This document shows positions 1-46,262 of a stretch of 64,000 bases of DNA, one piece after another. A model generated the notes under the pieces. It was not told the origin of the DNA and ran no database searches. It saw nothing but the letters and a program-made list of their open reading frames with translations. The translations under genes and the position numbers were made by a program. The stretch lies in IMG/VR virus record IMGVR_UViG_3300045988_100778, positions 32,001 to 96,000 of that record; one strand, 5' to 3'. Source of the stretch: a virus. Each line of letters begins with the position of its first letter. The stretch's first letter is position 1.

Positions 1-31
1 TGTGATGTAAGGTATATAACGGAAGAGTAGG

Positions 32-20976: not shown

Positions 20977-23900
20977 ATGATTACTAAGACAGCGAATACG
21001 ATTGCAAATTTAAAGAATTTGTGGATTGAAATGTTTTTAAACAAGACCGACCGTGTTTCAAACATTGCGGACGGTTCTGTACTTAATGGCGTCGCTTATG
21101 GTACCGCAAAGGTGGCGCAAAAAGCGATAAAGGATATTGCCATAGTGGAGGCGCAGATTTTCCCAAAGTCGGCAACAGGCGATTATCTGGACAAATCGGC
21201 CGCGTTGTTCGGTGTAAGTCCGAGAAAAGAAGCGCTTGGCTCCTCTACTTATGTACGTGTTTTTGCCGAGCCTGGCACGCATTATGAGGTAGGAACAAAG
21301 TTTATTTCAAAGAACGGAGTGCAATTTACTGTAGACCAACCTTTTACGGTTGATAAGTCGGGATATGGATATATCAGTGTAAGAAGCGTTATCACTGGGT
21401 CTGCTACCAATGTGGAGGCAAACAGTATTACGGAAGTATCGCCAAGACCATTGACACATATAGAGTGCACGAATGAATATGCGGCTATCGGTGGACGTGA
21501 TTATGAGGACGACGAGACATTCAGAAACAGAATAATAAATTATAATAACAAGCTTTCCACTGACACTATGGAAGGCTGGACGCAAATATTCCAGGATTTA
21601 GACCCGCGCATTTTAAAGGTAATGAATGTTGGGCTGGGTGAGGACGGAAAGACACACATTTACCTTGTAACCCAAAACGGGTCTTTCTTTACGGATGATG
21701 AATTGGAAGAATTGCTTACAAAAGCTACACCCTATTTCGGACTGACCGAACTTGACTTGCAAGGGAATACGCTTGGAATTGTGATAGAAAATGCAAAATG
21801 GATGTATGTAGGCGGTGAAGAGGGGGTGGATTTCCGTGTGGAATTGTCGCCTAATGCAGTGATTGCGGATGTAAGAAAAAATATCCAGATTGCAATGACG
21901 AAGTATCTGGATTTCCGTTTCTGGGAAGCAGGCAAAAAGGTAGAATGGGATGATTTGCTGGAAGTGGTGAAGACTGCGGAAGGCGTTAAGTATGTACCGG
22001 ACGAATATTTCTTTCCCTATTTTGACGAAGAGGTGCCTTTGAACATGTTGCCGCGTATCAAGGGATTCAGAATGCGAGACTTGGAAGGGAATATTCTGTA
22101 TGATTCGGGCAGCAGTTTGTCCAATATTTTTTATCCGGCAGGAGAAAGCGACATATATAAAGGTTCTCAATCGGTTATAGCGTCACAGAAATATTTGTGT
22201 TCATTTACCGTAACCAATACCAAGAATGTAGCCGTACCGGGCGCATATATAACAATAGGAAACAAGGTAATCATTACGGACAGTAACGGTACGGCAAACA
22301 TTCTTTTGGAAAATGGGGAATACACATACATATTGTCAAAAACGAACTGGACACAGAAGACAGGGGAGTTTGTTGTTCTGAACAATCCTATTTACATAAA
22401 CATAAATGATTTTATTGCAACACCCTATCCGGTTACGTTTACTGTATATGAAGGTGAAGCGCCCTTGCAGGGAGTGACTGTAACTACAAGCGTTTACACG
22501 TCAGAAACGGACGATAAGGGGCAGGCAGTCATTAACCTGGAGCCGGGAACCTACGAATACAAGCTTGAAAAGTCGGGTTTCCAGACCATAGAAAGCGTAT
22601 TTACGGTCGAAAATCAGCCAGTAGACATATTTCAAAGAATGTTTCTTACAAAAATGAATGTAAATTTTGCTGTAATTGACAGAAACAGAAGTATTTACAT
22701 TCCGGAAGCAAACATCACAATAAATGACATAAAGGAAAAGACGGATAACGAAGGGCAGGCAAGTATGGGATTGCAAACCGGGAAATACGAAATGAGGGTT
22801 GCAAAAGAAGACTATCAAGACCTTGTAAAGGAAATTGAGATTGTTGGGGAAGACCCTAATTGTATTCTCGTCGAAATGACGGCAATTCCGTATGCGATAA
22901 AGTTTACGGTGCTGGATTCTGCTACCCACATGGTTCTGGAAGGAGCAACGATAAAGATAAATGGTTCTACCTATCTGACCGACAAGGAAGGTATAGCGAT
23001 TATAAGTTTGCCGAACGGAACCTATGAATATACGGTTTTCAAGTCCGGTTATATGTCCGTTAATGATTTTGTAGTGGTGGAAGGTTCGGAAGTTTCTAAA
23101 ATTGTGGAATTGGAACAAGCTTTCTATACATTCCGCTTGACTGTACGGGACATTGAAAACGGTAACTATATCCAGGGTGCAGAATTGCAGATAAACGGAG
23201 AGACGCGTGTAACGAACGTCAACGGTGTTGCAAGCGTAACACTTGGAAACGGTGACTATGAATATACGGTAACGCACAGAAACTATAAGAGATATACCGG
23301 AACTGTGACTATCAAAGACCAGGACGTGCCGGAAACAATTTACTTGGAATTGAGAGATACGGTAATAACATACACTGCAACGGACGCGATAACGAAGGCT
23401 CCTATTTCCGGCGTATATATCGAATTGATAAACAAGGGAACTGGAATTAAGGTGGATTCCGGTTACACGAATGATATAGGTGTATTGCAGCTTGGAGCGG
23501 AAGCAGGGGAATATACTTGGAATGCGACACACAGATATTATGATGCGGTAGAAAACCAGTCGATAACGCTTGAAAAATTGAAGGATATAGACCTTCCCTT
23601 TACTATGACAAGAAGGGAAATCGAACCGGAAGTTGACGTAATAGAGAATATCCCCGGTGTGTCCGGTGATGCTACTACAGTAAGGTTCAGTGGTGAAAAT
23701 ACGGCTGAGACGTTATCTAATGACAGTTATTATTACATAGTTCATACACCGGAAAACTTCGTTATTCCTAACAAAGGGGTGACGTTTGATTTGATGGAAC
23801 ATGTAAAAACTTTTCGACGTGCAGAAATTGGCGGTGAGGACGAGCCATACGATTTTGCAAGTGGAGGTGCAGAATTGGTATTCAACGTATCGAATGACGA

Positions 23901-26900
23901 AATAGCTTCTTTGGAAGGTACGATGTTGACAGTGCAGCCGAATGTGACACGTGATGCACAGCCGAGAACTTTCTATGTGGATGTGACGATAACGACTCCG
24001 GTAAGCCAGGTGACTGTAAAGATAACTGCTGAACAGAAAGCTGCTCTGAACTTCAATCCGGTTAAGGACGGAATTGTCGTTTCGGTAAAAAATATGTACA
24101 ATGATAATGTACGGGAATATACGACGAACGCGGCAGGAAAGATATTTCCGGAAGTGATGTTGGGTATTGACTATCAGTTGACAATAAAGGAGAAAGGTTT
24201 CTACGAGAACAACGGCTTGCTGATTAAGAACTGGGGCTTCGGTGCGAGTGTACCTACACTGATGGAAATAACGGCTTCAAAAAGGCTTGAATTGAGAGTA
24301 AAACAGCAGAATACCCTAAGACCGCTTGAAAATGCGACTATAAAGGTGTCCGGAATGTCACTGCCTCAAACCGTTACGTCCGGAAGTGATGGTTCGGCAA
24401 GAGTGTACATTTCACCTATTGCAATGAGCTATGAGTGTACAGTAACAGACCATACGAAAAAGACTGGAACATTCACACCCCCGTTGTCGGCTGATTATAT
24501 GGATATAATCATGGGTTATGCTGCAATGACATTCAGTCTGACATTAACAGCAAGTAACCCCTATTCCAAGGCGGCAGAAAGTTGTCCGGTAACGGTTACG
24601 AGTGCATGGAGCGGAACATCTTCACAATCATATAGTTTTTCTGGAACAACGGATGCAAGCGGACAATTGACATCACAAGGAAATGGAAATTTCAATATAC
24701 CGCCTGGAAATTATACGATAACCTATGGAGGTGGAAACAGTAATTTCGACGGTAAGACAGAAAATATCTATCTGCCTACGGACAAGACGCATTCAGCAGT
24801 ATTAACAAGAAGAACGAAATCAGTCACATTCACGGTAAAGGAAATAATACCCTCTATTTCGACTACAGCATCAAATCCGGTAAAGACAGGTCTTGTGCTT
24901 GCATGCTATTACAACGACAATAGTACATCTTCGGGTGCGAATGTAACGACGAATGCAAGCGGACAATTTACAAAAACAGTGTATGCAGGAATTGCAGAAC
25001 GTTTCCAGGTGCAACCAATAGGATTCTATTCTGGAAACGGTGCAATAGCTACAGTCAATTATAAAGATGCAAACACAAAAGACCTTGTATATACATGTTC
25101 AAAGAGAATTCCGGTATATATCACATCCAATCTGTATGGTGAGTTAAGTGGCGCATCAGTGACGTTCAACGGAATGTCTGTGAACCAGACAGGAACGACC
25201 AATACGGACGGGATAGTGCAAATGTACATATCTCCGGTAAATATGTCTTACAGTGTAAGCAAGCAGCATTACAATACCAAGACTGGGAATTTCAAGCCTA
25301 CCGGAACAGAAACAAGAATGGATATTGAATTGGAGGCGAAGGAGTACCCGGTCACTTTCCATGTGTCAACACAAGGAGTTTTGCCACCGGACGGAATTTT
25401 GGTACGTGTGACAAACAACGCATTGCCGGACATTGTATTTGAGGGCGAGACGAATGTGGAAGGAACGATAGTCATGCCGAATGTTCCGGTAGGAGAATAC
25501 ACCTATGATGTTCTTGCAGGTGAGGTTTCATCCGACACATTCTTCCATCCTCAAAGTGAAAGTGGTACAGTGTTGGATGTAGAAGTGCAATATGAATTGA
25601 TTAACGCAGGTATTCAAGTTTCGGAGGTGTATGGTACGGCAGGAAGGGCGTATCTGTCAAATCAGACTATTACAATGACTTCCAAGGCAGGAACGATAAA
25701 GCTTACTTTGGATGAGAACGGTTATACCAATCAGTTATTAATAAAGGGATTGGAATACACGTTTACGACTGATTCATACCCGGCTTTTTATAGCAACCCG
25801 ACACAATCCTATACATGGACCGAAGACGGTGTGATATGGCCGTTCAACTTGAATGTGACCTCAAAGATAACGGTCAATGTAAAGGATGTATATGTGAAAA
25901 ACAATATCCAGGGAGTAACGGTAGCTTACAACGAACAGATAGTGACGACGGATGCAAGCGGTAACGCTTCATTGTTCCGGTCAGCACTGACAAAGGACTA
26001 TTCTTTGGATAAAGAGGATTATAGTACAGTAAATGGAACCATTGCACCTACCACGGCTTCACCACTCAATGTCACGATGTTGAGAAACAAACATGTAGTG
26101 ACGGTACAGCAGTATGAAGTAATACCAGGTGGTGCGAGTGTAATTTTGGACGGTGGTTATAATTTTACTCTTAATTATACATCAGCAGCAGGAAACGGAA
26201 CTATTAGTAGTGGTACAAATACATTTGAGGCATATATCGGCATTCCTATCACATTTGCAATAGTAGCAGAGAACAGAAGGGTATTTTATAGTAATCCAAC
26301 TCAAACCCATACATTTACATCGGCAGGTGAGAAATGGAACATGAATCTTACTTGTGCGAAACAGATAACCGTAAATGTGAAAGACAATGTGCCTGGCGCG
26401 AATGTACAGGGAGCTACGATAAACTATTTTACACAGACAAAAACGACGGATGCGAGCGGAAACGCAGTCTTTTATTGGAGTGGTTCAGACCCACGTAATA
26501 TATCAGTAAGTGCTTCAAATCTGGAATCTTATACCGGACAGATAGCTTACAATTCACCAAATCCGTTCAATGTTGTAATGACACGTGCAGCCAATCCGGT
26601 TACACTTGTAGTAAGAGAAATAACGCCAGCACAAACAACTTATTATCAGAACTTACAGATAAAATACACGGTAGGAAGTGCAACCGGAACACTTACTACA
26701 AATGCGAACGGTGCAGTGACATTCAATGGATATATAGGTACGGAAATGACGTTTACGGTAGTGGGACATCCGGAATTTTACAGCAACCCGACACAGAAAC
26801 ACACCTATACAGCCGCCAATCAGTCATGGACTATGGATTTGACGGTAACAGCAAAGATAACGATTAATGTCAAATCGAATGTACCGAGCGGAACAAATTT

Positions 26901-29900
26901 GAGTAGAGCTACCGTATCATATTTTCATCAGACAGGGACAACGGACAATAGCGGTAATGTATCATTGTATAGGAGTTCTGTAACAAGAAATGTAGATATT
27001 ACAGCGACATATCACGGTAATTATAGAGGCAGTATAACGTCAGACACCGCGTCTCCGTTCAACGCGGTAATGACGCGTTCAACCGCGACAGTAAGTCTTG
27101 GAGTGAGTGAAGTTGTTCGGGTTACTCCTAAATACATGCTCGAAATCACTACGGATGCAAGTTCTGCTGTAACTCCTAGATTAGGTGGCTTCTATTTTGG
27201 TACACCAACAGCAGCAAATAAGGAGTTTGTGGCGTATTTTAGAGCAAAGATTCCGGCTGATAGAAAGCTTATTTTTGCAAGTAATGCAACAGGTGACAAC
27301 CCTATAAGAAAATGGGTTAATTCAAATGACGGAAAAGGAACAGGAGGATGGTACACTTATGCCTACTATGTAAGATGCGGTTCTACTGGAAGGTTTTCAA
27401 CAACCAATTTTTTCTATATAGAGGGTGGAAGTAGACCGATTACATGGTATCTCGAAATGGCAACGGTATTCGACATAACCGGAAGCAATGTTCAGAATAA
27501 ATCGGATGCCGAGATTTTAAGTAAGTGTACTTTTGATAGAATGTTGTCTGGCAATAAAGACTTTTTGTTCAATGAAGGCTCGAACAGAATAAGATGGTAC
27601 AATAATTCTAATACAAATGCTGTAACAGTGACAAGAAAGGCGGCTTCTGGAACAGACACGTTTAATTTCACGATGGCAACTTATGCGTCTATGAAGATGA
27701 ATTTCAGTCCGGCAGCTTCTACAAGTCCTTTGACACTTGATACAAACGGTAATGTGTCTTTTGTATGCTATTTAGGTACGCCAGTAACATTCACACCGAC
27801 AACAAGAGCTAATTATTACAGTAATCCAAATACTGCACTGACTTATACAGCAGCAGGACAGTTCCAGGGAATATATCTGATTTGTAACCAAAAGATAACC
27901 ATTAATACAGTAGCGAATATCTACAATACAAGTAATGCACTTGCAGGAACGATAACCTATTTCGGACAGACACTTCCGTCTGGAGGAAGCTTCTATAGAA
28001 GCGGATTAGACAGACAAATGACCGCCACGGCACAGTATTTCAACAACTACGTAGGAACAGTTACCGCCACACAGACATCACCCTATACAGTGACGATGAA
28101 CAGGACGACAAGAACAGTAACATTGATTGTTAGGGAATCAGTAGGTAGCAATGAATATACATTGAGTAATGCGGTGATAGTAAGAAGTGTTCCGTCTACT
28201 TCAAATGCTCCGGCAGGAGAAATAACACTGGACGCAAACGGAAAGAAAACGAATACTGTATATGCAGGTATAAGCTACACCTATACACCAAAGAATTACG
28301 CAAGCTATTACAGCAATGCAAGCCAGGGTCATACATGGACGAGTGAAAACGAGCAATGGATTATGACATTGAATGTGACGGCACGTCTGACATTCAACAT
28401 AAAGAGTTCTAATTATGGGACAAATATAAGTGGAGTATCATGTTCCTATTTAGGACAGACTGGAACGACTGATTCCAGTGGTAACTGGACTGTATACAGA
28501 AGTGGTATAAGTAGAAGCTACTCATTCTCGAAAACAAATTACAATGCGTTATCCGGTACATTATCGGCAGCACAAGCAAGTCCGTTGAACTTGAAAATGA
28601 GTGAGACAAGTTCTTCTATCACTATAACAATAAAGGACTATTATCAGAGTGCCGTAAAAGGAAATGCGAACGGATGTCCGGTAACGCTGACGAACAAGAG
28701 CCTTTCTTCTATCACGTTCACGGGAACGACAAACAGTAGCGGACAGGTGAGTTTCGGACCCATGATAGCAGGTTCATATACATTGTCATGGGGTGGAGGA
28801 ACAAGTTATTGGGTAAATGGAAGTACCACGATAACAATGCCTACAGCAACAACTACACAGAATGCTGTAAGATTGACGAAGATTGTAGGTAATGTATTTT
28901 ATTTCCAAACACCAGCTACAGGAACGGCATTCAAATATTGGGCCGTAAATACTTTATTGAAGCCAGTATATACCACTGGAGGAGTGGCGACAACAGTAAC
29001 TTTGGTAAAATCGGGTGCGACATATTATGATATAGGAAACTACACGTACATTGCAGGTATAGCAACGACAATAAGTACGGCAGTAGCGACATATTTCAGA
29101 ACCGGAAGTTCTACCAACACTGCTTCCGTATATTCTGTCACTCCTACGTACAACTTTAACAATATACCGGGTGTCACAAGTTCAGCGCCTTTATGTTCGT
29201 ATGCGATAAAGGGTATTGTAGTGACTGTACAGAACAGCTATACAAATGCGGCTGTAAATGGAGCCACAATAAAGATGTATGGTATAAACGGTAGTAATGT
29301 TGTTGGAGGCGCAGGAGATGGTGCAGTACAGACTGTAACGACAAACAGTGCAGGACAGGCGACAGTATATATATCTGGACTGACAAACAGATACATAGTA
29401 AGTGCGACAAGATACGTGACATTAAACACCACCAACACGAACACCTCTAACTTTACAATCAAGCTGGTACCGTCGGAAGTGACAATAACAATAAACGTAA
29501 ACAACGCGAGTACAGGTTCAAGAGTAGGAAGTGGTGTAATAGTGAAGCTGTCAAGTAACAACACCAGCACGACATATAGCGGCACTACAAACTCGTCCGG
29601 ACAGGTGGTACTGAAGATAAAGCCGGGCAATTATTGGTGGGAAGCAGGAGGTAGCACGACCTGGGGAGGAAACGGAACAGGAACATGGAATTATCCGAAC
29701 CGTTCCACTACCTCAATCTCTCTCATCAAAGACCAGTCCATAACAATAGAGGCTCTAAAGGTAGGGGTGTGGGTTGATAGTGGAAGTGTGTATTTTGGAT
29801 TTAAAAATAACGAAAGTTTTTATACTGGTATAAATAGAGAAAATGGAGGGTCTGATTATATAGCTCATATCGGCAGTAGTCAAGCATTTATGATGAATAT

Positions 29901-31257
29901 ACCGTCTGATGTAAATACTTCAAATTATACGGTAAAAAAATTCTTATATTCATTTTCAAGACCTGGAATTGCTGCTCCATTTATAAATGCTTCTGTAATA
30001 ACAACTTCTTCCAATGGTTCTTTTCAATATAATATCGGAACTGACTTTAGTTCAAGTGAAGTCTTAATGGCAGATTTTCTTTATCTGTCTCTTTGGGGTG
30101 AAGCTTCTTATAATTACACTTTTGTAATGTATAGTGTAACAAGATATTCATTAGCGGCTTATTATTGTCAAATAAGAATTTTAAAACAGACTGGTCAAAT
30201 GCAACAATCTACATATTTTTTGCAAGAAGTTAGTTATGATGATTTGCCATACATAAAAGATATTTTAAATAATTTTTGTTACAAGAATTATTACGTTCCT
30301 TTATTGAATTATGGAGAAAACCAGGATGATAATTATATTTATATAGTAACGGGAATGGATTGTTTCGAATCTACTGATTATGTAATAAGTTATTCTATAG
30401 ATTATCAGAATACACCTGGGAGTCTTTGGAGCAGAAACCGTCTTCAAATTAGTGGTAATTCGAGAGTAAGTTCTGGTGCTGTAAAGAGATTCTTGTTTAC
30501 ACAAAGTAGTCACGAACTTTCCGTACTGGTATATGGTAAAAGAAATGATGTAAATAATAAATGCCATGCTGCTGTGTTATCGTTTAAAAGTTCAGAATGG
30601 AGTCATATAAGAAGTGGTTCAATCGCCAATAATGTTTGGTCTGTATATGACAATTTCCCGGCTGCATTTACTGACAAAATGGGTAATAATATGTGGGTTT
30701 CAAGTAATCTGAAATGGATGTTTGCTGTTTTGTATGGAACAACAGACAAACCGTATGGAAAGGGCCTCGTTACTGTAAAGAGTGCAACACCTATTATTGG
30801 GAAAACTGGCTGGTCTTTAACTACTTATTATATAGATGATGATTCAACATTGGAAATACGAAATGCAGTTGCTAATAAATACGTTCTTGATATTATTTTC
30901 AATAGCACTGACTATAAGATGATTGTATTATGTAACAGTCTGATAGGTTCTGGATTAGACCAAGATACTTATTATTCTTTTATCAGTCCAGATTATTTAT
31001 ATTGCTTTGTTTATAACGGAAAGAAATGGATGGAATTTTCAAAAGAGAGTGTAGGAATGAGTACGTTGTGGAATAGATATGATAATTATAAGACAATACC
31101 TGGCGGTGGAACGTTTGTCGATTACAAACCTTATTTTAATGTTATGGGTGTTACTGGTATATATGATAGTAACAGAAATATTTCTTTTGTCTATCCAGCA
31201 AAATATTCAACTTATGAACCAACAGCTTATGAATATAGTCTGACATTTGGTGATTGA
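20977..31257 (+). CDS. giant baseplate-J domain / repeat-array tail fibre fusion (3426 aa)
   Basis: N-terminal ~390 aa match the Baseplate_J pattern (..ATGDYLDKSAALFGVSPR.., ..AAIGGRDYEDDETFRNRI..). More than two dozen prealbumin/carboxypeptidase-regulatory-like repeats follow (..GATIKINGSTYLTDKEGIAIISLPNGTYEYTV..). Distinct C-terminal domain ends LTFGD. Confidence 0.8.
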   Translation: MITKTANTIANLKNLWIEMFLNKTDRVSNIADGSVLNGVAYGTAKVAQKAIKDIAIVEAQIFPKSATGDYLDKSAALFGVSPRKEALGSSTYVRVFAEPGTHYEVGTKFISKNGVQFTVDQPFTVDKSGYGYISVRSVITGSATNVEANSITEVSPRPLTHIECTNEYAAIGGRDYEDDETFRNRIINYNNKLSTDTMEGWTQIFQDLDPRILKVMNVGLGEDGKTHIYLVTQNGSFFTDDELEELLTKATPYFGLTELDLQGNTLGIVIENAKWMYVGGEEGVDFRVELSPNAVIADVRKNIQIAMTKYLDFRFWEAGKKVEWDDLLEVVKTAEGVKYVPDEYFFPYFDEEVPLNMLPRIKGFRMRDLEGNILYDSGSSLSNIFYPAGESDIYKGSQSVIASQKYLCSFTVTNTKNVAVPGAYITIGNKVIITDSNGTANILLENGEYTYILSKTNWTQKTGEFVVLNNPIYININDFIATPYPVTFTVYEGEAPLQGVTVTTSVYTSETDDKGQAVINLEPGTYEYKLEKSGFQTIESVFTVENQPVDIFQRMFLTKMNVNFAVIDRNRSIYIPEANITINDIKEKTDNEGQASMGLQTGKYEMRVAKEDYQDLVKEIEIVGEDPNCILVEMTAIPYAIKFTVLDSATHMVLEGATIKINGSTYLTDKEGIAIISLPNGTYEYTVFKSGYMSVNDFVVVEGSEVSKIVELEQAFYTFRLTVRDIENGNYIQGAELQINGETRVTNVNGVASVTLGNGDYEYTVTHRNYKRYTGTVTIKDQDVPETIYLELRDTVITYTATDAITKAPISGVYIELINKGTGIKVDSGYTNDIGVLQLGAEAGEYTWNATHRYYDAVENQSITLEKLKDIDLPFTMTRREIEPEVDVIENIPGVSGDATTVRFSGENTAETLSNDSYYYIVHTPENFVIPNKGVTFDLMEHVKTFRRAEIGGEDEPYDFASGGAELVFNVSNDEIASLEGTMLTVQPNVTRDAQPRTFYVDVTITTPVSQVTVKITAEQKAALNFNPVKDGIVVSVKNMYNDNVREYTTNAAGKIFPEVMLGIDYQLTIKEKGFYENNGLLIKNWGFGASVPTLMEITASKRLELRVKQQNTLRPLENATIKVSGMSLPQTVTSGSDGSARVYISPIAMSYECTVTDHTKKTGTFTPPLSADYMDIIMGYAAMTFSLTLTASNPYSKAAESCPVTVTSAWSGTSSQSYSFSGTTDASGQLTSQGNGNFNIPPGNYTITYGGGNSNFDGKTENIYLPTDKTHSAVLTRRTKSVTFTVKEIIPSISTTASNPVKTGLVLACYYNDNSTSSGANVTTNASGQFTKTVYAGIAERFQVQPIGFYSGNGAIATVNYKDANTKDLVYTCSKRIPVYITSNLYGELSGASVTFNGMSVNQTGTTNTDGIVQMYISPVNMSYSVSKQHYNTKTGNFKPTGTETRMDIELEAKEYPVTFHVSTQGVLPPDGILVRVTNNALPDIVFEGETNVEGTIVMPNVPVGEYTYDVLAGEVSSDTFFHPQSESGTVLDVEVQYELINAGIQVSEVYGTAGRAYLSNQTITMTSKAGTIKLTLDENGYTNQLLIKGLEYTFTTDSYPAFYSNPTQSYTWTEDGVIWPFNLNVTSKITVNVKDVYVKNNIQGVTVAYNEQIVTTDASGNASLFRSALTKDYSLDKEDYSTVNGTIAPTTASPLNVTMLRNKHVVTVQQYEVIPGGASVILDGGYNFTLNYTSAAGNGTISSGTNTFEAYIGIPITFAIVAENRRVFYSNPTQTHTFTSAGEKWNMNLTCAKQITVNVKDNVPGANVQGATINYFTQTKTTDASGNAVFYWSGSDPRNISVSASNLESYTGQIAYNSPNPFNVVMTRAANPVTLVVREITPAQTTYYQNLQIKYTVGSATGTLTTNANGAVTFNGYIGTEMTFTVVGHPEFYSNPTQKHTYTAANQSWTMDLTVTAKITINVKSNVPSGTNLSRATVSYFHQTGTTDNSGNVSLYRSSVTRNVDITATYHGNYRGSITSDTASPFNAVMTRSTATVSLGVSEVVRVTPKYMLEITTDASSAVTPRLGGFYFGTPTAANKEFVAYFRAKIPADRKLIFASNATGDNPIRKWVNSNDGKGTGGWYTYAYYVRCGSTGRFSTTNFFYIEGGSRPITWYLEMATVFDITGSNVQNKSDAEILSKCTFDRMLSGNKDFLFNEGSNRIRWYNNSNTNAVTVTRKAASGTDTFNFTMATYASMKMNFSPAASTSPLTLDTNGNVSFVCYLGTPVTFTPTTRANYYSNPNTALTYTAAGQFQGIYLICNQKITINTVANIYNTSNALAGTITYFGQTLPSGGSFYRSGLDRQMTATAQYFNNYVGTVTATQTSPYTVTMNRTTRTVTLIVRESVGSNEYTLSNAVIVRSVPSTSNAPAGEITLDANGKKTNTVYAGISYTYTPKNYASYYSNASQGHTWTSENEQWIMTLNVTARLTFNIKSSNYGTNISGVSCSYLGQTGTTDSSGNWTVYRSGISRSYSFSKTNYNALSGTLSAAQASPLNLKMSETSSSITITIKDYYQSAVKGNANGCPVTLTNKSLSSITFTGTTNSSGQVSFGPMIAGSYTLSWGGGTSYWVNGSTTITMPTATTTQNAVRLTKIVGNVFYFQTPATGTAFKYWAVNTLLKPVYTTGGVATTVTLVKSGATYYDIGNYTYIAGIATTISTAVATYFRTGSSTNTASVYSVTPTYNFNNIPGVTSSAPLCSYAIKGIVVTVQNSYTNAAVNGATIKMYGINGSNVVGGAGDGAVQTVTTNSAGQATVYISGLTNRYIVSATRYVTLNTTNTNTSNFTIKLVPSEVTITINVNNASTGSRVGSGVIVKLSSNNTSTTYSGTTNSSGQVVLKIKPGNYWWEAGGSTTWGGNGTGTWNYPNRSTTSISLIKDQSITIEALKVGVWVDSGSVYFGFKNNESFYTGINRENGGSDYIAHIGSSQAFMMNIPSDVNTSNYTVKKFLYSFSRPGIAAPFINASVITTSSNGSFQYNIGTDFSSSEVLMADFLYLSLWGEASYNYTFVMYSVTRYSLAAYYCQIRILKQTGQMQQSTYFLQEVSYDDLPYIKDILNNFCYKNYYVPLLNYGENQDDNYIYIVTGMDCFESTDYVISYSIDYQNTPGSLWSRNRLQISGNSRVSSGAVKRFLFTQSSHELSVLVYGKRNDVNNKCHAAVLSFKSSEWSHIRSGSIANNVWSVYDNFPAAFTDKMGNNMWVSSNLKWMFAVLYGTTDKPYGKGLVTVKSATPIIGKTGWSLTTYYIDDDSTLEIRNAVANKYVLDIIFNSTDYKMIVLCNSLIGSGLDQDTYYSFISPDYLYCFVYNGKKWMEFSKESVGMSTLWNRYDNYKTIPGGGTFVDYKPYFNVMGVTGIYDSNRNISFVYPAKYSTYEPTAYEYSLTFGD
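22190..29696 (+). repeat. array of ~60-90-aa beta-sandwich (CarboxypepD_reg-like) coding repeats
   Basis: Recurring pattern V.V.....G..TD..G.A...L..G.Y.Y.....Y, read directly from the translation. Confidence 0.7.
29697..29774 (+). repeat. inverted repeat, left arm (IR-L), inside the giant fibre ORF
   Basis: Checked base by base: identical to the reverse complement of 32831-32908; encodes NRSTTSISLIKDQSITIEALKVGVWV. Confidence 0.95.
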
Positions 31258-31262
31258 TTTAA

Positions 31263-31320
31263 TAAAGAGTAACTATATACCTAAACATTCTTGATGTAAA
31301 TGGTATATAGTTACTCTTTA
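31263..31320. terminator. bidirectional terminator between the two convergent fibre cassettes
   Basis: 19-bp perfect stem TAAAGAGTAACTATATACC/GGTATATAGTTACTCTTTA (31263-31281 / 31302-31320), 20-nt loop. Confidence 0.7.
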
Positions 31321-31341
31321 ATTAATATGAACACTTATTTA

Positions 31342-32907
31342 TTAGTCTCCGAAAGTCAGTTTAGCGTAATAAGCTGTCGTATTTTCGTTATATGAAGGGA
31401 AGGAATAACTCATATCCCAAGAACCAAGATAATTAGGATTGACATTAAAGAATGGTTTGTATTTTGCACCAGAACTTCCAGAGGATATATATTTATTCCA
31501 GAAATTAGTAAATCCTACTGTACTATAAGGTATATTTACCCATTTTTTACCATTATACATAAATGTAAATAAATGAGTTGGATGAATACCTTCTATATAT
31601 TGGTCTAATGTCTTTCCTCCTTGTGCTCCTACTGTATCGTTACAGAGAACAATCATTTTATTTTCATTCTTATTAAACTGAATTTCAAGTACATAATAAT
31701 TTGCAAGTGTATTTCTTAAATCTGCTGTAGAGCTATCGTTAATGGAATAAGTAGCTATCTCATTCCAACCAATATTTACGCTAAAAAGTGAATTTGAACT
31801 TGTAACTGTATTAATACCTTTCCCTATTCCGTAATTCCCCCTTTTGCAATACATCAGTGTCTTCATATCTGTTGTTACCCAAGCATTCAAACCAAAATCA
31901 TCTGTAATTGCAGAAGGAATATTATTGTAAAAAAACCAAAAATTATTTCCTTGATTATCATCTATATAATTCCATGTAGGAGCACCTCTAAATATAAATA
32001 TCCCAACCATATTAATTCCTCCAGGGTTTGATGTAGCAGATGAATCTGGGCCGAAACCTAATATTATTAATATTCTATTTTTATAATCAATATGTAGTTT
32101 TTTATAAAAAAGGATTTTGAATACTTTTGAAACTGTCACCGAAGAATTTATGTCGAATTGATGACCTGTTGTACCGCTACCTATGCTCCATGAGTTAATT
32201 TTAAATCTTACCAGATTGATTGCTGAATTATATATCGGTGTAATATAACAGTTATTATATGAATATTCATTATATATAATATCTGATTCGTCTCTTGTAA
32301 AAAGTTGTGTGATAGAATTGCGTATAGAATAATTATTGCTAAAATTAAATATCCAATTATCTTCTTGGCCAAAAATCTCAAATTTGAGATAATTTAGACT
32401 TCCACGTCTTACATTAAATTCCATCCATGTTATTCTATATGCAGAAGAATTACTGAGAAAGGTTCCTACAATATTTTGAAAATCACCGTCAGAACTTTTA
32501 CTGAGATACAAGCTTCCTTGCATATAATAATATCCCGACAATATGTTATCACTAAAGACATTAGGAAGTCCTGGAACCAAAACACTCGTACGTGTATATA
32601 AAAAATTATATGGGTCTATTCCCAAAGAAATAATTGTTTTACCTTGCGGAACATCTTGGTTTACAGAGCTGTCATTTGTATTGTAAGTTAAGACCATAGA
32701 ACAAGAAGAACTTGGATATCTTTTATTTTCTGTTACTTCTGAACTTGTTATATTGTTGTAATACACTAACCCAGTATATGAATTTTTTCTTGTAACGGCG
32801 ACAGCATCTCCACCACTCCATTCATCACTCACCCACACCCCTACCTTTAGAGCCTCTATTGTTATGGACTGGTCTTTGATGAGAGAGATTGAGGTAGTGG
32901 AACGGTT
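31342..32907 (-). CDS. start-less alternative fibre C-terminal cassette (silent in this orientation)
   Basis: Reverse-strand frame is open from the IR edge. A TAG at 32910-32908 closes it upstream and there is no ATG in the IR-encoded part. The C-terminal ~200 aa are paralogous to the giant ORF C-terminus (..NKMIVLCN.., ..YNGKKW.., ..LTFGD). Confidence 0.8.
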   Translation of the reverse strand, partial: NRSTTSISLIKDQSITIEALKVGVWVSDEWSGGDAVAVTRKNSYTGLVYYNNITSSEVTENKRYPSSSCSMVLTYNTNDSSVNQDVPQGKTIISLGIDPYNFLYTRTSVLVPGLPNVFSDNILSGYYYMQGSLYLSKSSDGDFQNIVGTFLSNSSAYRITWMEFNVRRGSLNYLKFEIFGQEDNWIFNFSNNYSIRNSITQLFTRDESDIIYNEYSYNNCYITPIYNSAINLVRFKINSWSIGSGTTGHQFDINSSVTVSKVFKILFYKKLHIDYKNRILIILGFGPDSSATSNPGGINMVGIFIFRGAPTWNYIDDNQGNNFWFFYNNIPSAITDDFGLNAWVTTDMKTLMYCKRGNYGIGKGINTVTSSNSLFSVNIGWNEIATYSINDSSTADLRNTLANYYVLEIQFNKNENKMIVLCNDTVGAQGGKTLDQYIEGIHPTHLFTFMYNGKKWVNIPYSTVGFTNFWNKYISSGSSGAKYKPFFNVNPNYLGSWDMSYSFPSYNENTTAYYAKLTFGD

Positions 32908-32908
32908 C
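32831..32908 (-). repeat. inverted repeat, right arm (IR-R)
   Basis: Reverse complement identical to 29697-29774 over 78 nt; mismatches immediately outside both ends. Confidence 0.95.
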
Positions 32909-32988: not shown

Positions 32989-35900
32989 ATGGAAGTAAAA
33001 CAGAAGAAAGAAAACCCGTGTGGGGGATTATTTTTACCCCAGTCCACACCTATATATGATAATTTGCCTTTCAGTCGTTTTTTCGAGGAAAACGACAAGG
33101 AAGTAATACGGTGGGCAGAAAATGTACTTGAAAAACTGGAAGGAAGGGGAATTTTGCCTACATTCCTAAAGAAGAAAGAGAACGAGGATTTCCGTGCATT
33201 CTGGGGAACCATAACCCATATATTCGCTTTGATAGTTCTGTATGCAAGACAATACAAAAAGATAGACACGAATCAGATTTTGTTCGAGATGTTTATTCAG
33301 AACAGAGGTCTTGTTACTAACATGGTGGACAGCCAGGAACAGATGAAATACCTATTTTATAATTACCTGGAAGAATATTCAAAGCGTGGAAGACTTGACA
33401 TCATAAGCAAGGAAGGCGAGATATTGGGAGAATTGTTGCGACTGATAAGATACAATTCGTTGGACGAGTTTATATTTGCCTTGTTGAGACCGGAAGCTAC
33501 GGGGTGGGCGATGGGACATAGTTCGCCTACATGTGACCGGACGAATACGGTAATGAATGTATCAAAAGCGTATGAATATACAAAAGGAGTAGAGGATTTG
33601 AATAATTATCCTCTATTGATACCGGAAAGTATAAGTATAACGCAGGACGAAAACGGGAATGATGGAGAGATATTCAACGCTATGACATTTTTTGGCAACC
33701 AAGCCGTGGGTATAGACGGAAGGGTGGATTTGGACAAGCTTATAATTATAGACCCGAACCTATCCTATGAAATATCATTGCAAGTAAAGGTGTCGGCTAC
33801 AGACAATGAAAACCTAAAGTTTGGAGTAGCAGGCTATGAAACGGTAGATGGCGAGCCATTGCCTATGGGGATATTGGAAAACGGACAGATAACCGGAAGC
33901 TCTCTATGGTTCCACGAAAACGAATATTTAGACATAAAGAACGAGGGCATGTATTACTACATAAAAGGAATACTGCTGTCAACGAACGAGAAGTTTTTGA
34001 ACGCACCTACGCTTAATTTCCCGTCTGGACGTGCTTTGTCGATAATGCCGGGAATGAAGTATATCGCACCTATATTTATCCAGGAAAGAACGGTCGGGAA
34101 TCACCCGTATGTATATATATACGATTTTCATGTGAAACCCTTATATCTGCCGTTTTCACAAGGATATTTGGGTGAACGCGATATTATAGCCGCCTACTAC
34201 AAGAACAACGCATATCAGAGACAGTTCACCGTAGAGACCTTCCTAAAAAATTACCTTGTTGGATATAAGAACATATTCGGCAGTGAATTGATACGTCCTT
34301 ATGTAGGAGAGGAAGAATATCAGATATTGTTCAAGGTATTTTCAAACCGGAATAAGTATATACCCAATGCGAAGATAACGGTAAACGGGGAAGAACTGAT
34401 AACGGACGTTAACGGTGAGGCGAAGATAACGCTGCCGCGCGGACAATGGTATTACGAGGTGGAAGCAGAAAACTTTGAAAGCGTGGAAAACACCTTATTG
34501 GTGGACAAGGATGCTGTAGAATATGTACAGTTAATGGGAGCCGCCTATGAACGGGTGGTTACGTTCTTTGTGCGCAACAAGGAGACAAAAGACTGGATGC
34601 AGAACGTGAAAGTGTCCTTTGCAGGAAAGGTGCAATATACCGGAAGCAACGGTATAGCGACATTCGAGGTATTTCCTGGTATATATGAATATGTGGCAGA
34701 ATACGAGGACTATTATACAGTAAGAAGAAATGCTGAAATAGTGGATTCTACCAATATCGAAATCGAGATGGAAAAGATACCTTACTATAACGTGACTTTC
34801 CGTATAAGGGATGGTGTGGAACCAGTATCGGGCGCATCCGTATTGGTGACGGGTGAGGGAATTCCTAATCAGACCGGAAGTTCTAATGCGCAGGGTCTTG
34901 CAACCGGGTTCGTATATCCGGCAGGAACGTATCATTATAAGGTTGTTAAGGAAGAATATGTGACGGTAGAAAATGACTTCACAATATACGGCAATGCCGT
35001 TATTGACGTGCAGTTCCACCCTATACCGAAATATAAGATAAATTTTATTGTGAGAAGCAACGGCTTGCCAGTGTCAAAGGCAGACGTGACGTTCAATGGA
35101 ACGACGCTGCAAACGGCAAGTAACGGAGTTGTGACGTTCATAGACATAGCAGGGGAATATAACTGGAAGGTGACAAAGACCGAATTCTATGCAAAGGACG
35201 GTACCGTAGAAGTTATCGACCAGGACGTGACGATAGAAGTTGACTTGGTGCAGATGGGTTACTTGATTGACTTCTATGTGACGGACGAGGACAACACTCC
35301 ATTAGACGATGCTTTGGTAACGATAGGAACGGAAGCGATAAGCACGAGTGGAGGACAAGCGCAGTTTGTCCGGATATCGGGCGGCTATAACTGGACTGTA
35401 CAGAAAGAAGGATATTATACCAAGCAGGGTGTAGTGACGGTGAACGGGGAGAACAAGCGCGTGGACGTGCAATTGAAGCTTGTCACCTATGATATCATCT
35501 TTACTGTGAGGATGAATAATCAGCCAGTAAGGAACCAGCCCGTTGTGCTTGGAGTGGGAGAAGGAGAACAGACAGTCAATACGGATGGGAGCGGAAACGC
35601 GGTATTTAACCGTGTACCAGGCAGTTACCCGTGGAGTGTAAATAAAGAGGGGTACGAACCGAGAACTGGAACGGCAGTTTTGATAAACCAGCCTTTAGCC
35701 ATAACGGTAGACCTTGTTAAGCAGACCGGAAAACTGACGGTAAAAGTTCTTGACGTAGAGACAGAACAGCCTATACAGAATGCAGTGGTGACGATAAACG
35801 GGGAGACGAGATATTCCAACAACAACGGTATTGCTGCAAGTTGGACGTTAGAACTTGGTGTATGGGAATGGAGTGCCTCACAGCAAGACTATAACCCAGC

Positions 35901-38457
35901 AAAGGGTAATGTCAACATAAAGCCAGGAGAAAACGAGTACACCATAAAAATGAGCGAGAAGTCCGCGGTTCCGTTCAACGTGACATTCAACGCTTCGATA
36001 GGGGCTGTCCAGGCTTCGGGAGCCAAAATAAACATTGTGGGACAGACAGAAGAACTCGTAACAAATGAGCTTGGTTTGGTATCTACACAATTGTTTTCGG
36101 GCACATACGACTATGTGGCAACTTATCCCTATTGCTATGACGTGGTGAACTCGTTTACCGTGTACAATTCAGACACCCGTGTTCCTATCAACTTTACCGT
36201 AAAGAGGGTGAATGTGAGAATACAGGTTGTTAATGGTAGCAATATAGGTATAAGCGGTGCACAGGTGACGTTTAACGGAATGACACAGTATTCCGATGGG
36301 CAGGGATATACGACCTTCAATGTGGAGGCAGGAAGTTCTGGTACGGCTACGGCAAGCAAGTTGCCTCAATACAACGAGAACAGTACCTATGTGACTGTAG
36401 GAGAATACGATACAAGTGCGACGATAGTTCTTGGCGTAAATACCTATAAAGTTATTTTTGACGTGGTGGACGAGAAAGGGATATCCATAAGAGGGGTACG
36501 TATTGTATGCGGAGGTACGGCAAAGAACACGGATGGAGCCGGGCGTGCGGTATTCGGAACATACGTACCGCCTCAGACATTAAGCTGGCAGGCGTCAAAA
36601 GCCGGATATCAGAGCCAGAACGGTTCTGTGAGCATAAGTAATAGCGACGAATATGTTAATGTCGTAATGACGCGCAACAAATGCCAGGTTACATATAACG
36701 TGCGTACAAAAAGCGGTTCTCCTATTTCTGGCGTAACTGTGGAAGACAACATAAGTTCGGGCGTGACAAGTTCGAGCGGCACCGTATCATGGATGGTACC
36801 ATGTAACGATACCTATGCGTGGATAGCGACAAGTCAGAATTACTTTACAGAGAGCGGAAGTTACACGGTAGGGCCGGAAGAGTTCAGCAAGACGATTGAC
36901 ATAATAATGGAAGACGGTGCGGTACTGGAAGTAAGTGTGTCAAATGGCACGAACATAGTGTTGCCCGTACTTAATACCTCCTCTACCGGGCTGAATAATC
37001 TTCGTGTTAAATGGGGAGATGGTGAGCAGACAGTAGGAACAAGTTCGCATACCTACAGTTCCGGAGGAACAAAGATAATATTGTTCGACTTTAACGGGAT
37101 GTCGGCCAATTTATCATGGAGTGCAAACGGATTTTCAAGTTTCCAGAATTGTTTGACAAGAGTAATCAAGTGGTTTACCGAAAATGTGAGAACGTCGTGG
37201 GGAAAGGGAGCCTTCCAGGATTGCAGCAGTCTTGAATCGGTTGTAAGCTGGACTACAAGTCTTATGAGCGGTTCGGCAGATTCGTTCTTTGATGGGTGCA
37301 GTAGTTTAAGAAGTGTTCCGTCTGGATTATTTGAATTTGTGACAAGTGGTACATTCGTAAAAACATTTAAGGATAGCGGATTGAATGGTTCTGTGAACTT
37401 GTCAAGTGTGCTTGCAGGGAATTCGATAAGTGATTACTCTTACTGTTTTTGGAGATGTAAGAATATTTCTTCTGTATCTGGACAGTTAAGAACATCGGGT
37501 AATGGAACATCTTTGGATTATATGTTTGCGGAATGCAGCGGAATGTCAAGTATAAGCAATGATATAGGCGCGATAAATATAAGTCATTGTGATTACATGT
37601 TTTCCAATTGCTCCAATTTACAATCACCTTGCAGAATAACGTTCAAGTTTTTTTCTGGACGTACACAATCGGCAAGTAGTTTTTGTTGGTCTTCGGGTAT
37701 ATCATCGTTGCCGAGCAATCTGTTTTCCGGGACTATATATTCATTGTCCCTTAATAAAGCGTTTTCCGGTTGTACCAATTTGTCAAGTATAAGTTCGGGT
37801 GCATTTAATTATACAGTAAGTTCCGGTACACAATGTGTTGATATGTTCTATGGTTGTACAAGCTTGCTGAATGTAAGCGGTGTAGTAATTCCGGATATCA
37901 GAAGCGCGGCCAACATGTTTTTGAATAGTGGCTTGACTACCATAACATCTTCTCTTTTTTCCGATTCTCCTAATTGTGCTTCTTATGCGTATTGCTTTAG
38001 TGGATGTAGGAATTTGAGAACAGCAGGTTCACAAGGAAATCCGATTACTCCATCGAATCATTCAGTGACGGTAGATATTGACGGAATGTTTGAGAATTGT
38101 TCCAATTTGCTGACGGCTGAATATGCTTTCGGTGATGTGACTGTAAATAAACTTGGACCTACCAGAACTGATAATAGTTATATAGAATCGGGGGTACTGA
38201 AATATATAACCAGTTGCACAAATACATTTAGCGGTTGCTCAAATATGACATCTCAACCGAGATGGGATTGTATAGTAGCCGGAGTAAAATTGCCGTCAGC
38301 TTATATGCCTCTGTTTTATTATTTTAAGAGAATATTCCAACCATATCAATTCGGTTTCCCGGATGTCGACAGTATATCCAAAAGCGGATGTTTCAGAGGA
38401 TGTACAAAGATGAATGGTTACGACCAATATATTAGTGCTTATCCAGAATGGTTCTAA
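32989..38457 (+). CDS. second large tail fibre: beta-sandwich repeats, PKD-like domain, BspA/DUF285-type leucine-rich repeats
   Basis: 1822 aa; about 11 CarboxypepD_reg-like repeats (34318-36915); VKWGDGEQTVGTSSHTYSSGG is PKD-like; C-terminal repeats FQDCSSLESV, FDGCSSLRSV, FAECSGMSSI, FSNCSNLQS, FSGCTNLSSI, FENCSNLLTA. Confidence 0.7.
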   Translation: MEVKQKKENPCGGLFLPQSTPIYDNLPFSRFFEENDKEVIRWAENVLEKLEGRGILPTFLKKKENEDFRAFWGTITHIFALIVLYARQYKKIDTNQILFEMFIQNRGLVTNMVDSQEQMKYLFYNYLEEYSKRGRLDIISKEGEILGELLRLIRYNSLDEFIFALLRPEATGWAMGHSSPTCDRTNTVMNVSKAYEYTKGVEDLNNYPLLIPESISITQDENGNDGEIFNAMTFFGNQAVGIDGRVDLDKLIIIDPNLSYEISLQVKVSATDNENLKFGVAGYETVDGEPLPMGILENGQITGSSLWFHENEYLDIKNEGMYYYIKGILLSTNEKFLNAPTLNFPSGRALSIMPGMKYIAPIFIQERTVGNHPYVYIYDFHVKPLYLPFSQGYLGERDIIAAYYKNNAYQRQFTVETFLKNYLVGYKNIFGSELIRPYVGEEEYQILFKVFSNRNKYIPNAKITVNGEELITDVNGEAKITLPRGQWYYEVEAENFESVENTLLVDKDAVEYVQLMGAAYERVVTFFVRNKETKDWMQNVKVSFAGKVQYTGSNGIATFEVFPGIYEYVAEYEDYYTVRRNAEIVDSTNIEIEMEKIPYYNVTFRIRDGVEPVSGASVLVTGEGIPNQTGSSNAQGLATGFVYPAGTYHYKVVKEEYVTVENDFTIYGNAVIDVQFHPIPKYKINFIVRSNGLPVSKADVTFNGTTLQTASNGVVTFIDIAGEYNWKVTKTEFYAKDGTVEVIDQDVTIEVDLVQMGYLIDFYVTDEDNTPLDDALVTIGTEAISTSGGQAQFVRISGGYNWTVQKEGYYTKQGVVTVNGENKRVDVQLKLVTYDIIFTVRMNNQPVRNQPVVLGVGEGEQTVNTDGSGNAVFNRVPGSYPWSVNKEGYEPRTGTAVLINQPLAITVDLVKQTGKLTVKVLDVETEQPIQNAVVTINGETRYSNNNGIAASWTLELGVWEWSASQQDYNPAKGNVNIKPGENEYTIKMSEKSAVPFNVTFNASIGAVQASGAKINIVGQTEELVTNELGLVSTQLFSGTYDYVATYPYCYDVVNSFTVYNSDTRVPINFTVKRVNVRIQVVNGSNIGISGAQVTFNGMTQYSDGQGYTTFNVEAGSSGTATASKLPQYNENSTYVTVGEYDTSATIVLGVNTYKVIFDVVDEKGISIRGVRIVCGGTAKNTDGAGRAVFGTYVPPQTLSWQASKAGYQSQNGSVSISNSDEYVNVVMTRNKCQVTYNVRTKSGSPISGVTVEDNISSGVTSSSGTVSWMVPCNDTYAWIATSQNYFTESGSYTVGPEEFSKTIDIIMEDGAVLEVSVSNGTNIVLPVLNTSSTGLNNLRVKWGDGEQTVGTSSHTYSSGGTKIILFDFNGMSANLSWSANGFSSFQNCLTRVIKWFTENVRTSWGKGAFQDCSSLESVVSWTTSLMSGSADSFFDGCSSLRSVPSGLFEFVTSGTFVKTFKDSGLNGSVNLSSVLAGNSISDYSYCFWRCKNISSVSGQLRTSGNGTSLDYMFAECSGMSSISNDIGAINISHCDYMFSNCSNLQSPCRITFKFFSGRTQSASSFCWSSGISSLPSNLFSGTIYSLSLNKAFSGCTNLSSISSGAFNYTVSSGTQCVDMFYGCTSLLNVSGVVIPDIRSAANMFLNSGLTTITSSLFSDSPNCASYAYCFSGCRNLRTAGSQGNPITPSNHSVTVDIDGMFENCSNLLTAEYAFGDVTVNKLGPTRTDNSYIESGVLKYITSCTNTFSGCSNMTSQPRWDCIVAGVKLPSAYMPLFYYFKRIFQPYQFGFPDVDSISKSGCFRGCTKMNGYDQYISAYPEWF

Positions 38458-39895: not shown

Positions 39896-39899
39896 GTTA

Positions 39900-39937
39900 T
39901 TGCGTATGTCATAAACAAATATTATCTTTGTGGTGTG
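39900..39937 (+). promoter_or_regulatory. dispersed promoter/operator element, copy C (5'-truncated, diverged)
   Basis: TTGCGTATGTCATAAACAAATATTATCTTTGTGGTGTG; lacks the CATAAGCAC part. Confidence 0.5.
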
Positions 39938-46224: not shown

Positions 46225-46262
46225 ATAAGAAATCAAGGTCAAACAAGTAAAAGATAAAAGTC

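Follow-up and report, generated by a model that had tools for sequence, protein, structure and literature searches.

A probable invertible head switch at the end of a giant tail-fibre gene in a phage of the human gut

Can a phage exchange the C-terminal head of its tail fibre by turning round a piece of its own genome, and if so, by what machinery? The question is raised by positions 29697-32908 of the stretch of DNA analysed here, a portion of 64,000 nucleotides (nt) from a virus genome (IMG/VR record IMGVR_UViG_3300045988_100778, positions 32,001 to 96,000; hereafter the window), in which two opposed cassettes at the 3' end of a giant baseplate-wedge/fibre gene are enclosed by inverted repeats. 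The original prediction, made from the letters of this DNA alone, took the arrangement for a candidate invertible host-range switch. In the comparison with related genomes described below, both orientations of the window segment and of seven other cassette pairs are found in nature, the flips are recurrent and recent, and an invertible head switch is very probably what the segment represents.

The comparison draws on related loci (numbered with the prefix L) from metagenome, IMG/VR and ENA contigs. Because of single-nucleotide polymorphisms (SNPs), an exact 49-mer of the arm retrieved one locus only from IMG/VR, and a degenerate 44-nt arm pattern was used instead. As this pattern lies in the arm and biases the sample toward conserved inner arms, an unbiased sample, anchored on the gene of 1822 amino acids (aa) downstream of the segment, was added. 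In total, 50 distinct segments were obtained, with only exact segment duplicates removed (some IMG/VR and ENA contigs may share studies), and cassette clusters were defined at a nucleotide identity of at least 88%.

Both orientations of the segment exist in nature

The segment and its surroundings comprise the following features.

20977..29696, + strand: fibre gene, constant part, spanning 2906 codons and 2 further bases; baseplate-wedge (gp6/J-like) N-terminus, then a long Ig/CarboxypepD_reg-like repeat array
29697..29774, + strand: left arm, in frame, encoding the 26-aa joint NRSTTSISLIKDQSITIEALKVGVWV
29775..31257, + strand: variable part of cassette A, at present fused to the fibre; 519-aa module counted from 29698; stop at 31255-31257; predicted beta-propeller-like head
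31257..31326, both strands: hairpin between the convergent cassettes, with a 25-bp stem and A/U-rich tails on both strands
31342..32830, - strand: variable part of cassette B, at present silent; 521-aa module counted from 32907; stop at 31344-31342; without a start of its own upstream of the arm
32831..32908, - strand: right arm; its base 32908 doubles as the G of an in-frame TAG (32910-32908), by which the frame ahead of the silent cassette is closed
32989..38457, + strand: downstream gene, 1822 aa, with CarboxypepD_reg repeats; the fixed right flank, beginning 80 nt from the right arm

In a repeat search of the window, the two arms are 78 nt each, 100% complementary and spaced by 3056 nt, and exact string comparison upheld the perfect 78-bp inverted repeat that had been described, with mismatches directly outside both ends. 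A chance origin of 78 matched bases is negligible; the pair is the sole inverted repeat of at least 40 nt in the 64 kb, and no further copy of any arm piece of 14 nt or more was found in the window. The reading frames are also as originally described, the left arm being translated within the open reading frame (ORF) 20977-31257 (3426 aa) and the right arm heading a reverse-strand cassette in which an in-frame TAG is followed by an open frame to 31345. The arithmetic of the two isoforms is likewise correct, in that 2907 constant residues plus 519 give 3426 aa and plus 521 give 3428 aa. Since the earliest possible start codon in the frame of cassette B is a GTG at 32838, within the right arm, about 70 nt of this arm are untranslatable in place, and the only database entry for the cassette is a 498-aa 'hypothetical protein' (P0001) called from this GTG.

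Cassettes A and B are diverged paralogues (29% identity, expectation value (E) 4e-46), closest over their last ~220 aa. The pair (29775-32830) has a G+C content of 31%, as compared with 42% in the constant part of the same gene and 43% in the next gene, a sharp compositional island that is consistent with a horizontally exchanged module. The RNA fold of the central hairpin is stable on both strands (-33 kcal/mol, z -7.2, on the + strand and -30 kcal/mol, z -9.5, on the - strand), suggesting an orientation-independent (bidirectional) terminator. In relatives, the inter-cassette spacer measures 46-108 nt and folds at -17 to -36 kcal/mol; a strong hairpin is found in the 46 genomes in which both cassettes are intact and the spacer can be delimited.

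The most direct evidence for inversion comes from relatives in the flipped orientation, which were looked for and found, both for the window's own segment (L255/L285) and in a total of 8 pairs among the 50 segments. Window positions 29697-32908 correspond to positions 5796-2585 of L255 (contig IMGVR_UViG_3300045988_116130) in reverse, with 98.94% identity over 3212 nt and no gaps, while the flanks of L255 are collinear with those of the window (99.3% identical on the right, 80.7% on the left), which places the inversion breakpoints at the outer edges of the arms (29697 and 32908). In L285, from the same contig, the fibre frame stays open for 903 codons, continuing past the arm into a 521-aa module that shares 97.1% identity with cassette B, and the silent position is occupied by an antisense 519-aa cassette, 98.3% identical to A and again preceded by an in-frame TAG. 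As judged by translation, the L255/L285 fibre is exactly the second isoform that had been predicted. The claim that the segment inverts and thereby swaps the C-terminal module of the fibre is thus supported by the reversed segment with its breakpoints at the arm edges and by the fusion of B in L285.

This exchange is not confined to one pair of genomes. Cassettes of type A occupy the silent position in L255, L272 and L032, and those of type B are fused to the fibre in L255/L285, L272, L009 and L021. Across the 50 segments there are 22 cassette clusters, 11 of which are found in both positions, in 36 different pairs, and the 8 reciprocal-orientation pairs observed exceed the 3.9 ± 1.5 obtained in partner shuffles (P 0.01). 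The segments of L284 and L255 are flipped, yet only 5 of 3212 nt differ (99.84% identity); similarly, L267 and L272 are flipped at 99.1% identity, whereas L267 and L284, in the same orientation, are just 96.6% identical. Both states are present within each sub-lineage, with breakpoints always at the arms, and as the orientation is unrelated to phylogeny, the 50 genomes imply nine independent inversions or more. These orientations are compared between genomes, no same-sample contigs with both junctions being present in the set fetched; flipping within one population at a useful frequency presumably takes place as well.

The two-cassette module is also maintained as such. Both cassettes are intact (frames of ~495-513 codons) in 46 of the 50 genomes, though one of them has no start, and the silent cassettes therein stay intact; within cassette types, the ratio of nonsynonymous to synonymous substitution rates (dN/dS) is alike for expressed-expressed, silent-silent and mixed pairs. 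In the other four genomes one cassette is broken early (frames of 13-102 codons), on the silent side in L011 and L306 and on the expressed side in L023 and L026; these interruptions could be sequencing or assembly errors or truly defective heads. The same cassette type occurs twice in none of the 50 genomes, as compared with ~3.9 expected from type frequencies (P ~0.02). Arms are present in 50 of 50 two-cassette genomes, so that the finding named in the original prediction as one that would speak against it, relatives that keep two cassettes and lack the arms, was not made; they are 60-95 nt long among the 50 genomes, and in the unbiased set they measure 76-87 nt and are 91-100% identical. In more distant relatives (L319-L321), the second cassette and the arms are absent together, and the fibre gene runs straight into the next gene. 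The fibre of these phages has a single fixed C-terminus (L319 4-5934, L321 165-5903), with only ~27% identity to the cassettes in its final ~200 aa. Since the C-terminus is fixed in these distant relatives, and both the second cassette and the arms are missing, the invertible module represents a gain specific to the lineage.

What the exchanged heads recognise is approached here by structure prediction. An AF2 model of cassette A, built on an alignment of 18 sequences, is all-beta (predicted local distance difference test score (pLDDT) 67.9, predicted template modelling score (pTM) 0.75), and its best Foldseek matches are beta-propellers, namely paramyxovirus attachment heads, a fucose lectin, sialidases, GH43 enzymes and PL25 lyases. 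The template modelling (TM) scores to these propellers are only 0.3-0.45, for which reason a glycan-binding or glycan-cutting head is no more than plausible. Searches of the cassettes against Pfam and PHROGs gave no matches. The model nevertheless points to a receptor-binding role, and inversion would then alter the host range.

Taken together, segment 29697-32908 would act as a two-state invertible module at the 3' end of the giant baseplate-wedge/fibre gene. The 2907 constant residues would end in the 26-aa joint, and whichever cassette lies beside the left arm would be translated as a C-terminal head of ~495 aa, the other remaining antisense, without a start codon and behind the TAG, with the central hairpin ending transcription in either orientation. 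Recombination from arm to arm would flip the segment and thereby convert the fibre between head A (3426 aa) and head B (3428 aa), presumably changing the surface glycan or receptor recognised on a Bacteroidota host. Catalysis would be by the phage RecA/SbcCD or by host recombination functions, without a dedicated site-specific invertase. This explanation as a whole, comprising the switch, the head exchange and a mechanism of homologous recombination, is put forward with moderate confidence, on the favourable side of even.

The mechanism of inversion

The genes that bear on the mechanism are the following.

1..30, + strand: last 10 codons of a 151-aa Resolvase-like gene (window 1-30 matches the end of L035 9544-9999 exactly)
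58693-59721, + strand: SbcD-like (PHROG E 4.5e-54; Pfam Metallophos E 8.1e-11)
59721-60692, + strand: RecA (Pfam RecA E 1.1e-74)
60674-62674, + strand: SbcC-like (PHROG E 1.6e-49)

The arms themselves carry the clearest record of how they recombine. Over arm positions 17-78, arms from the same genome differ on average at 0.74 sites, as compared with 3.63 between genomes (permutation P < 1e-4); the arms are 100% identical by BLAST in 29 of the 50 genomes, and no difference over positions 17-78 is found in 32. In addition, rare SNPs are found on both arms of one genome (G61/A64 in L286, A65 in L295, A73 in L292, and AT70-71 in L247, L275, L305 and L308). The shared private SNPs include sites 5-8 nt from the inner arm edge, some of them too near to unique cassette sequence to be the product of repeat collapse in assembly. 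Arm length and outer boundary vary (60-100 nt), and the L003 lineage keeps a repeat of ~100 nt of ~65% different sequence; from such comparisons, the identity of the arms seems to matter more than their sequence. Since the arms evolve in concert, identity outweighs sequence and RecA and SbcCD are encoded, a homologous-recombination flip-flop with gene conversion is preferred, with RecA/SbcCD as candidate catalysts of the arm-to-arm exchange, and homologous recombination between the arms is modestly favoured over a site-specific invertase.

The search for such an invertase covered window ORFs of at least 100 aa and the remaining ~38 kb of a 101.9-kb relative, reached via L036, L091, L167 and L238, recombinases being recognisable therein as members of families in Pfam or PHROGs. 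Neither the window nor the rest of the 101.9-kb relative yielded an intact Pfam Resolvase or Phage_integrase domain, and domain scans of the window ORFs confirmed the earlier remark that no invertase gene adjoins the segment. The TnpB genes that are present encode RNA-guided nucleases rather than invertases. The sole recombinase-like gene found in the genome is the 151-aa gene, 29.7 kb from the segment, whose product combines an N-terminal helix-turn-helix (HTH) with an IS607-TnpA-like serine-recombinase domain (Pfam Resolvase E 1.4e-7; best PDB match ISC1926 TnpA). This protein lacks the catalytic serine (it reads YARVMN where YARVSS is expected, and RKSLSG instead of DRLTR), and its match ends at profile position 101 of 145. 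It is near-identical in 57 matches among the 82 related loci searched, with YARVMN in 57 of 57, and no match was found in the ~20-kb loci examined from the lineage with a short right arm, which still flips. As a candidate invertase it was rejected on these three grounds, the absent nucleophile, the truncation and the lack of a match in the ~20-kb loci of a flipping lineage; its sequence suggests that it is probably a domesticated DNA-binding protein instead.

Nor do the arms contain a recognisable crossover site. The palindrome GAACCGTTC at the outer arm edge, which the original prediction had regarded as a possible recombinase half-site, does not hold up as such, being absent from the right arm (62-nt arms) of a sub-lineage that still flips (e.g. 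L007 versus L008). A search for a dyad-symmetric 26-bp site, over the arm and 15 nt on either side, gave a best window with symmetry at 6 of 12 positions, and shuffles average 6.9. The site consensus of the Mpi invertase is ARACGTWCGT, and no motif of this type was found on either arm strand at up to 2 mismatches, which is a partial test of host invertase sites. Features of a shufflon are lacking in so far as only two arms are found per genome in all loci and no match to the Phage_integrase family was obtained.

Several points weigh against an invertase-free switch, or against parts of it. Both orientations are known from assembled contigs of different genomes, and the orientation across a repeat may occasionally be mis-resolved in assembly, but typical reads are longer than 78 nt, and the picture is the same across many assemblers and projects. 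The identity of the arms may in part reflect assembly repeat collapse (though not the SNPs a few nt from the cassette), and the fold of the head is predicted with moderate confidence, as its TM scores to propellers indicate. Arms of 62-87 nt are short for RecA-type recombination, given its minimal processing segments. Furthermore, the many ORFs without a family assignment could hide a novel recombinase, a host Bacteroidales invertase may act in trans, and the inner ~45 nt of the arm, highly conserved between genomes in a sample of which part was fished with a pattern located there, could reflect a protein recognition site.

These last points converge on the rival explanation that survives best, in which the switch is the same but is operated by conservative site-specific recombination, through an unrecognised phage protein or a host Bacteroidales invertase in trans; it is to be taken seriously, though it is considered the less likely of the two. 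Bacteroidales hosts are rich in trans-acting invertases, many phage ORFs are without a Pfam or PHROG match, and the flips are frequent relative to divergence. The inner arm is almost invariant across genomes, several synonymous sites included, and the blocks GACCAG.C.ATAACAAT and AAGGT.GG...GTGGGT survive even in the divergent L003 arms, but such blocks may equally reflect a coding constraint on the joint peptide together with pattern-based sampling. All of the classical tail-fibre switches (Mu, P1, e14, p15B) work by site-specific recombination (PMC9881135; bioRxiv 10.64898/2026.02.14.705889), and the Mpi invertase family is named in the first of these sources (PMC9881135). Against this stand the lack of an intact Resolvase or Phage_integrase domain in the window and in the whole genome of the relative, the missing nucleophile in all 57 copies of the sole Resolvase-like protein, and the arms themselves, with no Mpi-type motif, no dyad symmetry above chance and a dispensable outer palindrome. 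In addition, exchange at a fixed point leaves unexplained the private SNPs found on both arms along their whole length, as well as the 60-100 nt over which identity is kept, though sites of ~30 nt would suffice.

A second rival denies a programmed switch altogether: the reverse cassette would be a separate gene or a spare part, and the flips rare accidents of a mosaic fibre locus, sorted by selection. Gene callers do render the reverse cassette as a 498-aa protein starting in the arm, the 36 different cassette pairs imply rampant exchange between phages, and the flanks are mosaic, the left flank being 79-94% identical beside segments that are 99% identical. This reading is nevertheless improbable in view of the number of flips (at least nine in 50 genomes, one pair being only 0.16% diverged, and both states in each sub-lineage) and of breakpoints that always fall at the arms. 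If the cassette were a free-standing gene, 70 nt of the arm would go untranslated, and their perfect identity indicates a function at the level of DNA; the TAG before the arm and the lack of an upstream start are conserved, the central hairpin is symmetric, and arms and second cassette are gained or lost together.

That the opposite orientations are mere assembly artefacts of an arbitrarily resolved 78-nt repeat is very improbable, for although a de Bruijn graph accommodates either orientation when an inverted repeat exceeds the k-mer in length, and contigs that end at or within ~60 nt of an arm (L282, L307, L311, L323, L012, L031) show that the repeat troubles assemblers, the junctions are read directly by reads of 100-150 nt and far larger inserts, each orientation is represented in contigs from a large number of independent projects and assemblers (SPAdes NODE, MEGAHIT k-series, JGI), and neither the open promoterless cassettes nor the fact that the same type never lies on both sides, yet types lie on both sides in different pairings, would be explained.

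Genome, host and neighbouring features

The genes of the phage are all on the + strand. Fibre residues 27-338 match the PHROG baseplate wedge subunit (E 8.8e-32), and the gene order around the 1822-aa gene is kept in L002-L004. The fibre upstream of the arm (window ~27000-29696 compared with the left flanks of L255, L284 and L267) is 79-94% identical between strains, and in the same strains the invertible segment is 96-99.8% and the right flank 100% identical; by this comparison, the repeat-array part of the fibre appears itself to be highly mosaic. The last 10.5 kb of the window (the part compared) are 100% identical to ENA contig ERZ27261566:k99_95822 (105,344 bp).

The genome encodes a split DnaE, a DnaB-like helicase, a Toprim primase, RecA, SbcC- and SbcD-like proteins, a ligase and helicases of superfamilies 1 and 2 (SF1/SF2). 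Several of its genes contain inteins. DnaE (Pol III alpha; window 51821-55901) is divided between two ORFs (531 + 827 aa), the second with an intein, and relatives have an intein-free form of 654 aa; the large terminase (window 9291-11402, 704 aa) contains a Hint/Hom_end intein, and its version in L035 is intein-free (560 aa). A UvrD-like helicase in a relative (L039 16190-18703) likewise has an intein, with a LAGLIDADG domain, and intein content thus appears to be polymorphic among strains.

A 1.3-kb insertion at window 5550-6870 carries a TnpB gene (ORF 5627-6838; OrfB_IS605 and Cas12f-like TNB). The site is empty in L035 and L036, and relatives carry TnpB copies elsewhere (e.g. L035 1960-3153 and the ends of L038 and L039); these insertions look like TnpB-only mobile elements moving within a phage lineage of virulent type. 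An ATG-initiated ORF of 396 aa on the - strand (window 13042-14232), mostly inside the 924-aa + strand ORF 13238-16012, matched no recombinase family and, since the strand bias is uniform, is probably spurious.

A direct repeat of 50-100 nt (ATAAGCACTTGCGTATGTCATAACATAATCTTATCTTTG...) is present in six intergenic copies (3971-4019, 11429-11477, 39892-39940, 46179-46227, 48192-48240 and 63858-63906), each of which contains TTG and, after ~19 nt, TATCTTTG. This arrangement resembles the Bacteroides -33/-7 promoter consensus (TTG...TAnnTTTG), and the repeats, which probably serve the phage as promoters, hint at the phylum of its host. Other host clues are a BACON-domain protein in a relative and a portal similar to those of Chryseobacterium and B. 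thetaiotaomicron myophages. Neither the arm pattern nor relatives of the cassettes were found in 185,579 species-representative bacterial genomes, and as a result there is neither a prophage copy nor a host clue by that route. Several clues in the sequence thus point to a virulent myophage of Bacteroidota. No close phage was found in GenBank, the matches at protein level being distant only. One protein of the phage is indexed in 1655 blocks of the assembly collection, and this uncultured phage is accordingly very common in human-gut data.

Significance and relation to known systems

Bacteroidales evade phages by phase-varying their capsules and surface proteins, and to our knowledge, diversity-generating retroelements are the only well-known answer on the side of the gut phages. 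A phage with a reversible two-head fibre, inverted many times and with heads drawn from a shared pool of at least 22 types, would be another, and the locus described here, of which no description was found in the literature searched, offers a concrete place in which phase variation on the phage side can be tested by polymerase chain reaction or from reads. Host prediction or strain typing from one assembled orientation would miss half of the receptor repertoire, the silent head being labelled as a hypothetical protein. If the switch is indeed invertase-free, it would be a phage counterpart to the phase-variable capsules of the hosts, and if the mechanism is recombinase-free, gene-splicing inversions can evolve from a duplicated coding joint and general recombination. 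The fullest form of this proposal, an invertase-free programmed host-range switch in a virulent and prevalent gut myophage, in which RecA/SbcCD act on an in-frame repeat of 62-100 nt to alternate two beta-propeller heads, and in which the repeat is also a portable joint for the exchange of at least 22 heads between co-infecting phages, is tentative and has slightly less than an even chance of being right. The 78-nt joint and its modular heads could also serve as a design template for host-range engineering in Bacteroides phages.

Among described phages, the 'Gratiaviridae', a candidate family from Bacteroides and Parabacteroides, share, by their published description (PMC8008677), DnaG primase, DnaE, SF1/SF2 helicases, SbcCD, RecA, a contractile-tail baseplate and a kinase-like gene by the portal. 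The paper that defines this group does not mention an inversion, and it describes the group as uncommon in viromes (PMC8008677), in contrast to the 1655 assembly blocks with a protein of the present phage. In the relative L091, a Zeta-toxin-like kinase gene (6612-7538) directly follows the portal gene, which recalls the kinase that this description locates between the portal and capsid genes.

Gene-altering programmed inversions are known from bacteria and prophages, with tail-fibre genes as an enriched target class (PMC9881135). With these inversions, and with shufflons (R64 pilV, Rci), the present locus shares the C-terminal exchange of specificity in a surface-recognition protein and the start-less antisense alternatives. 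Shufflons, however, contain several 19-bp sfx repeats and an adjacent tyrosine recombinase, whereas the present segment has two arms and no tyrosine recombinase, and its diversity, at least 22 types, is spread over the phage population instead of being kept in one genome.

Isomerisation across inverted repeats without a recombinase is known from the L/S isomers of herpesviruses and from the flip-flop of plastid inverted repeats. In the Anabaena cyanophages A-1(L), N-1 and Elbi, a region of ~30 kb is invertible and no dedicated recombinase has been identified (bioRxiv 10.64898/2026.02.14.705889); identical inverted repeats, an orientation independent of phylogeny among close relatives and recombination-proficient replication are common to these phages and the phage described here. 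As in a homologous-recombination flip-flop, the arms are kept identical within a genome whatever their sequence, no dedicated recombinase is recognised, and RecA/SbcCD are encoded. The repeats of the cyanophage, herpesvirus and plastid type nevertheless measure 400-700 nt or more, and what they enclose is tens of kb of whole genes, with no gene splicing, whereas here a repeat of 62-100 nt lies in the reading frame, and the flip rewrites the C-terminus of one protein.

The closest likeness in architecture is to the G segment of Mu, the C segments of P1 and P7, the P segment of e14 and the Min region of p15B, in all of which the 3' end of a tail-fibre gene is taken up by a segment of ~3 kb with inverted repeats, with a constant N-terminal part outside and two opposed alternative C-terminal parts inside. 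There too, inversion joins a different receptor-binding end to the same fibre, and both orientations occur in nature (here, between genomes). The original likening of the locus to Mu G, P1 C and p15B Min therefore stands for the architecture and fails for the invertase gene and crossover sites that define those systems. In contrast to the Gin-Cin-Pin-Min systems, no small serine invertase with a catalytic serine and a C-terminal HTH is adjacent and none was found intact in the genome, no gix/cix-like site of 26-34 bp with imperfect dyad symmetry about a 2-bp core is present, and the arms are coding, 60-100 nt long and evolving in concert. Each cassette is a single ORF fragment without a fibre-assembly chaperone gene of the U/U' type, the heads are predicted beta-propellers on a 2907-aa baseplate-wedge/repeat-array protein, the host is probably one of the Bacteroidota, and the phage, absent from bacterial genomes, looks virulent. 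In function this is a gene-splicing inversion of the Mu G, P1 C and p15B Min type, in a locus that is not a member of their family.

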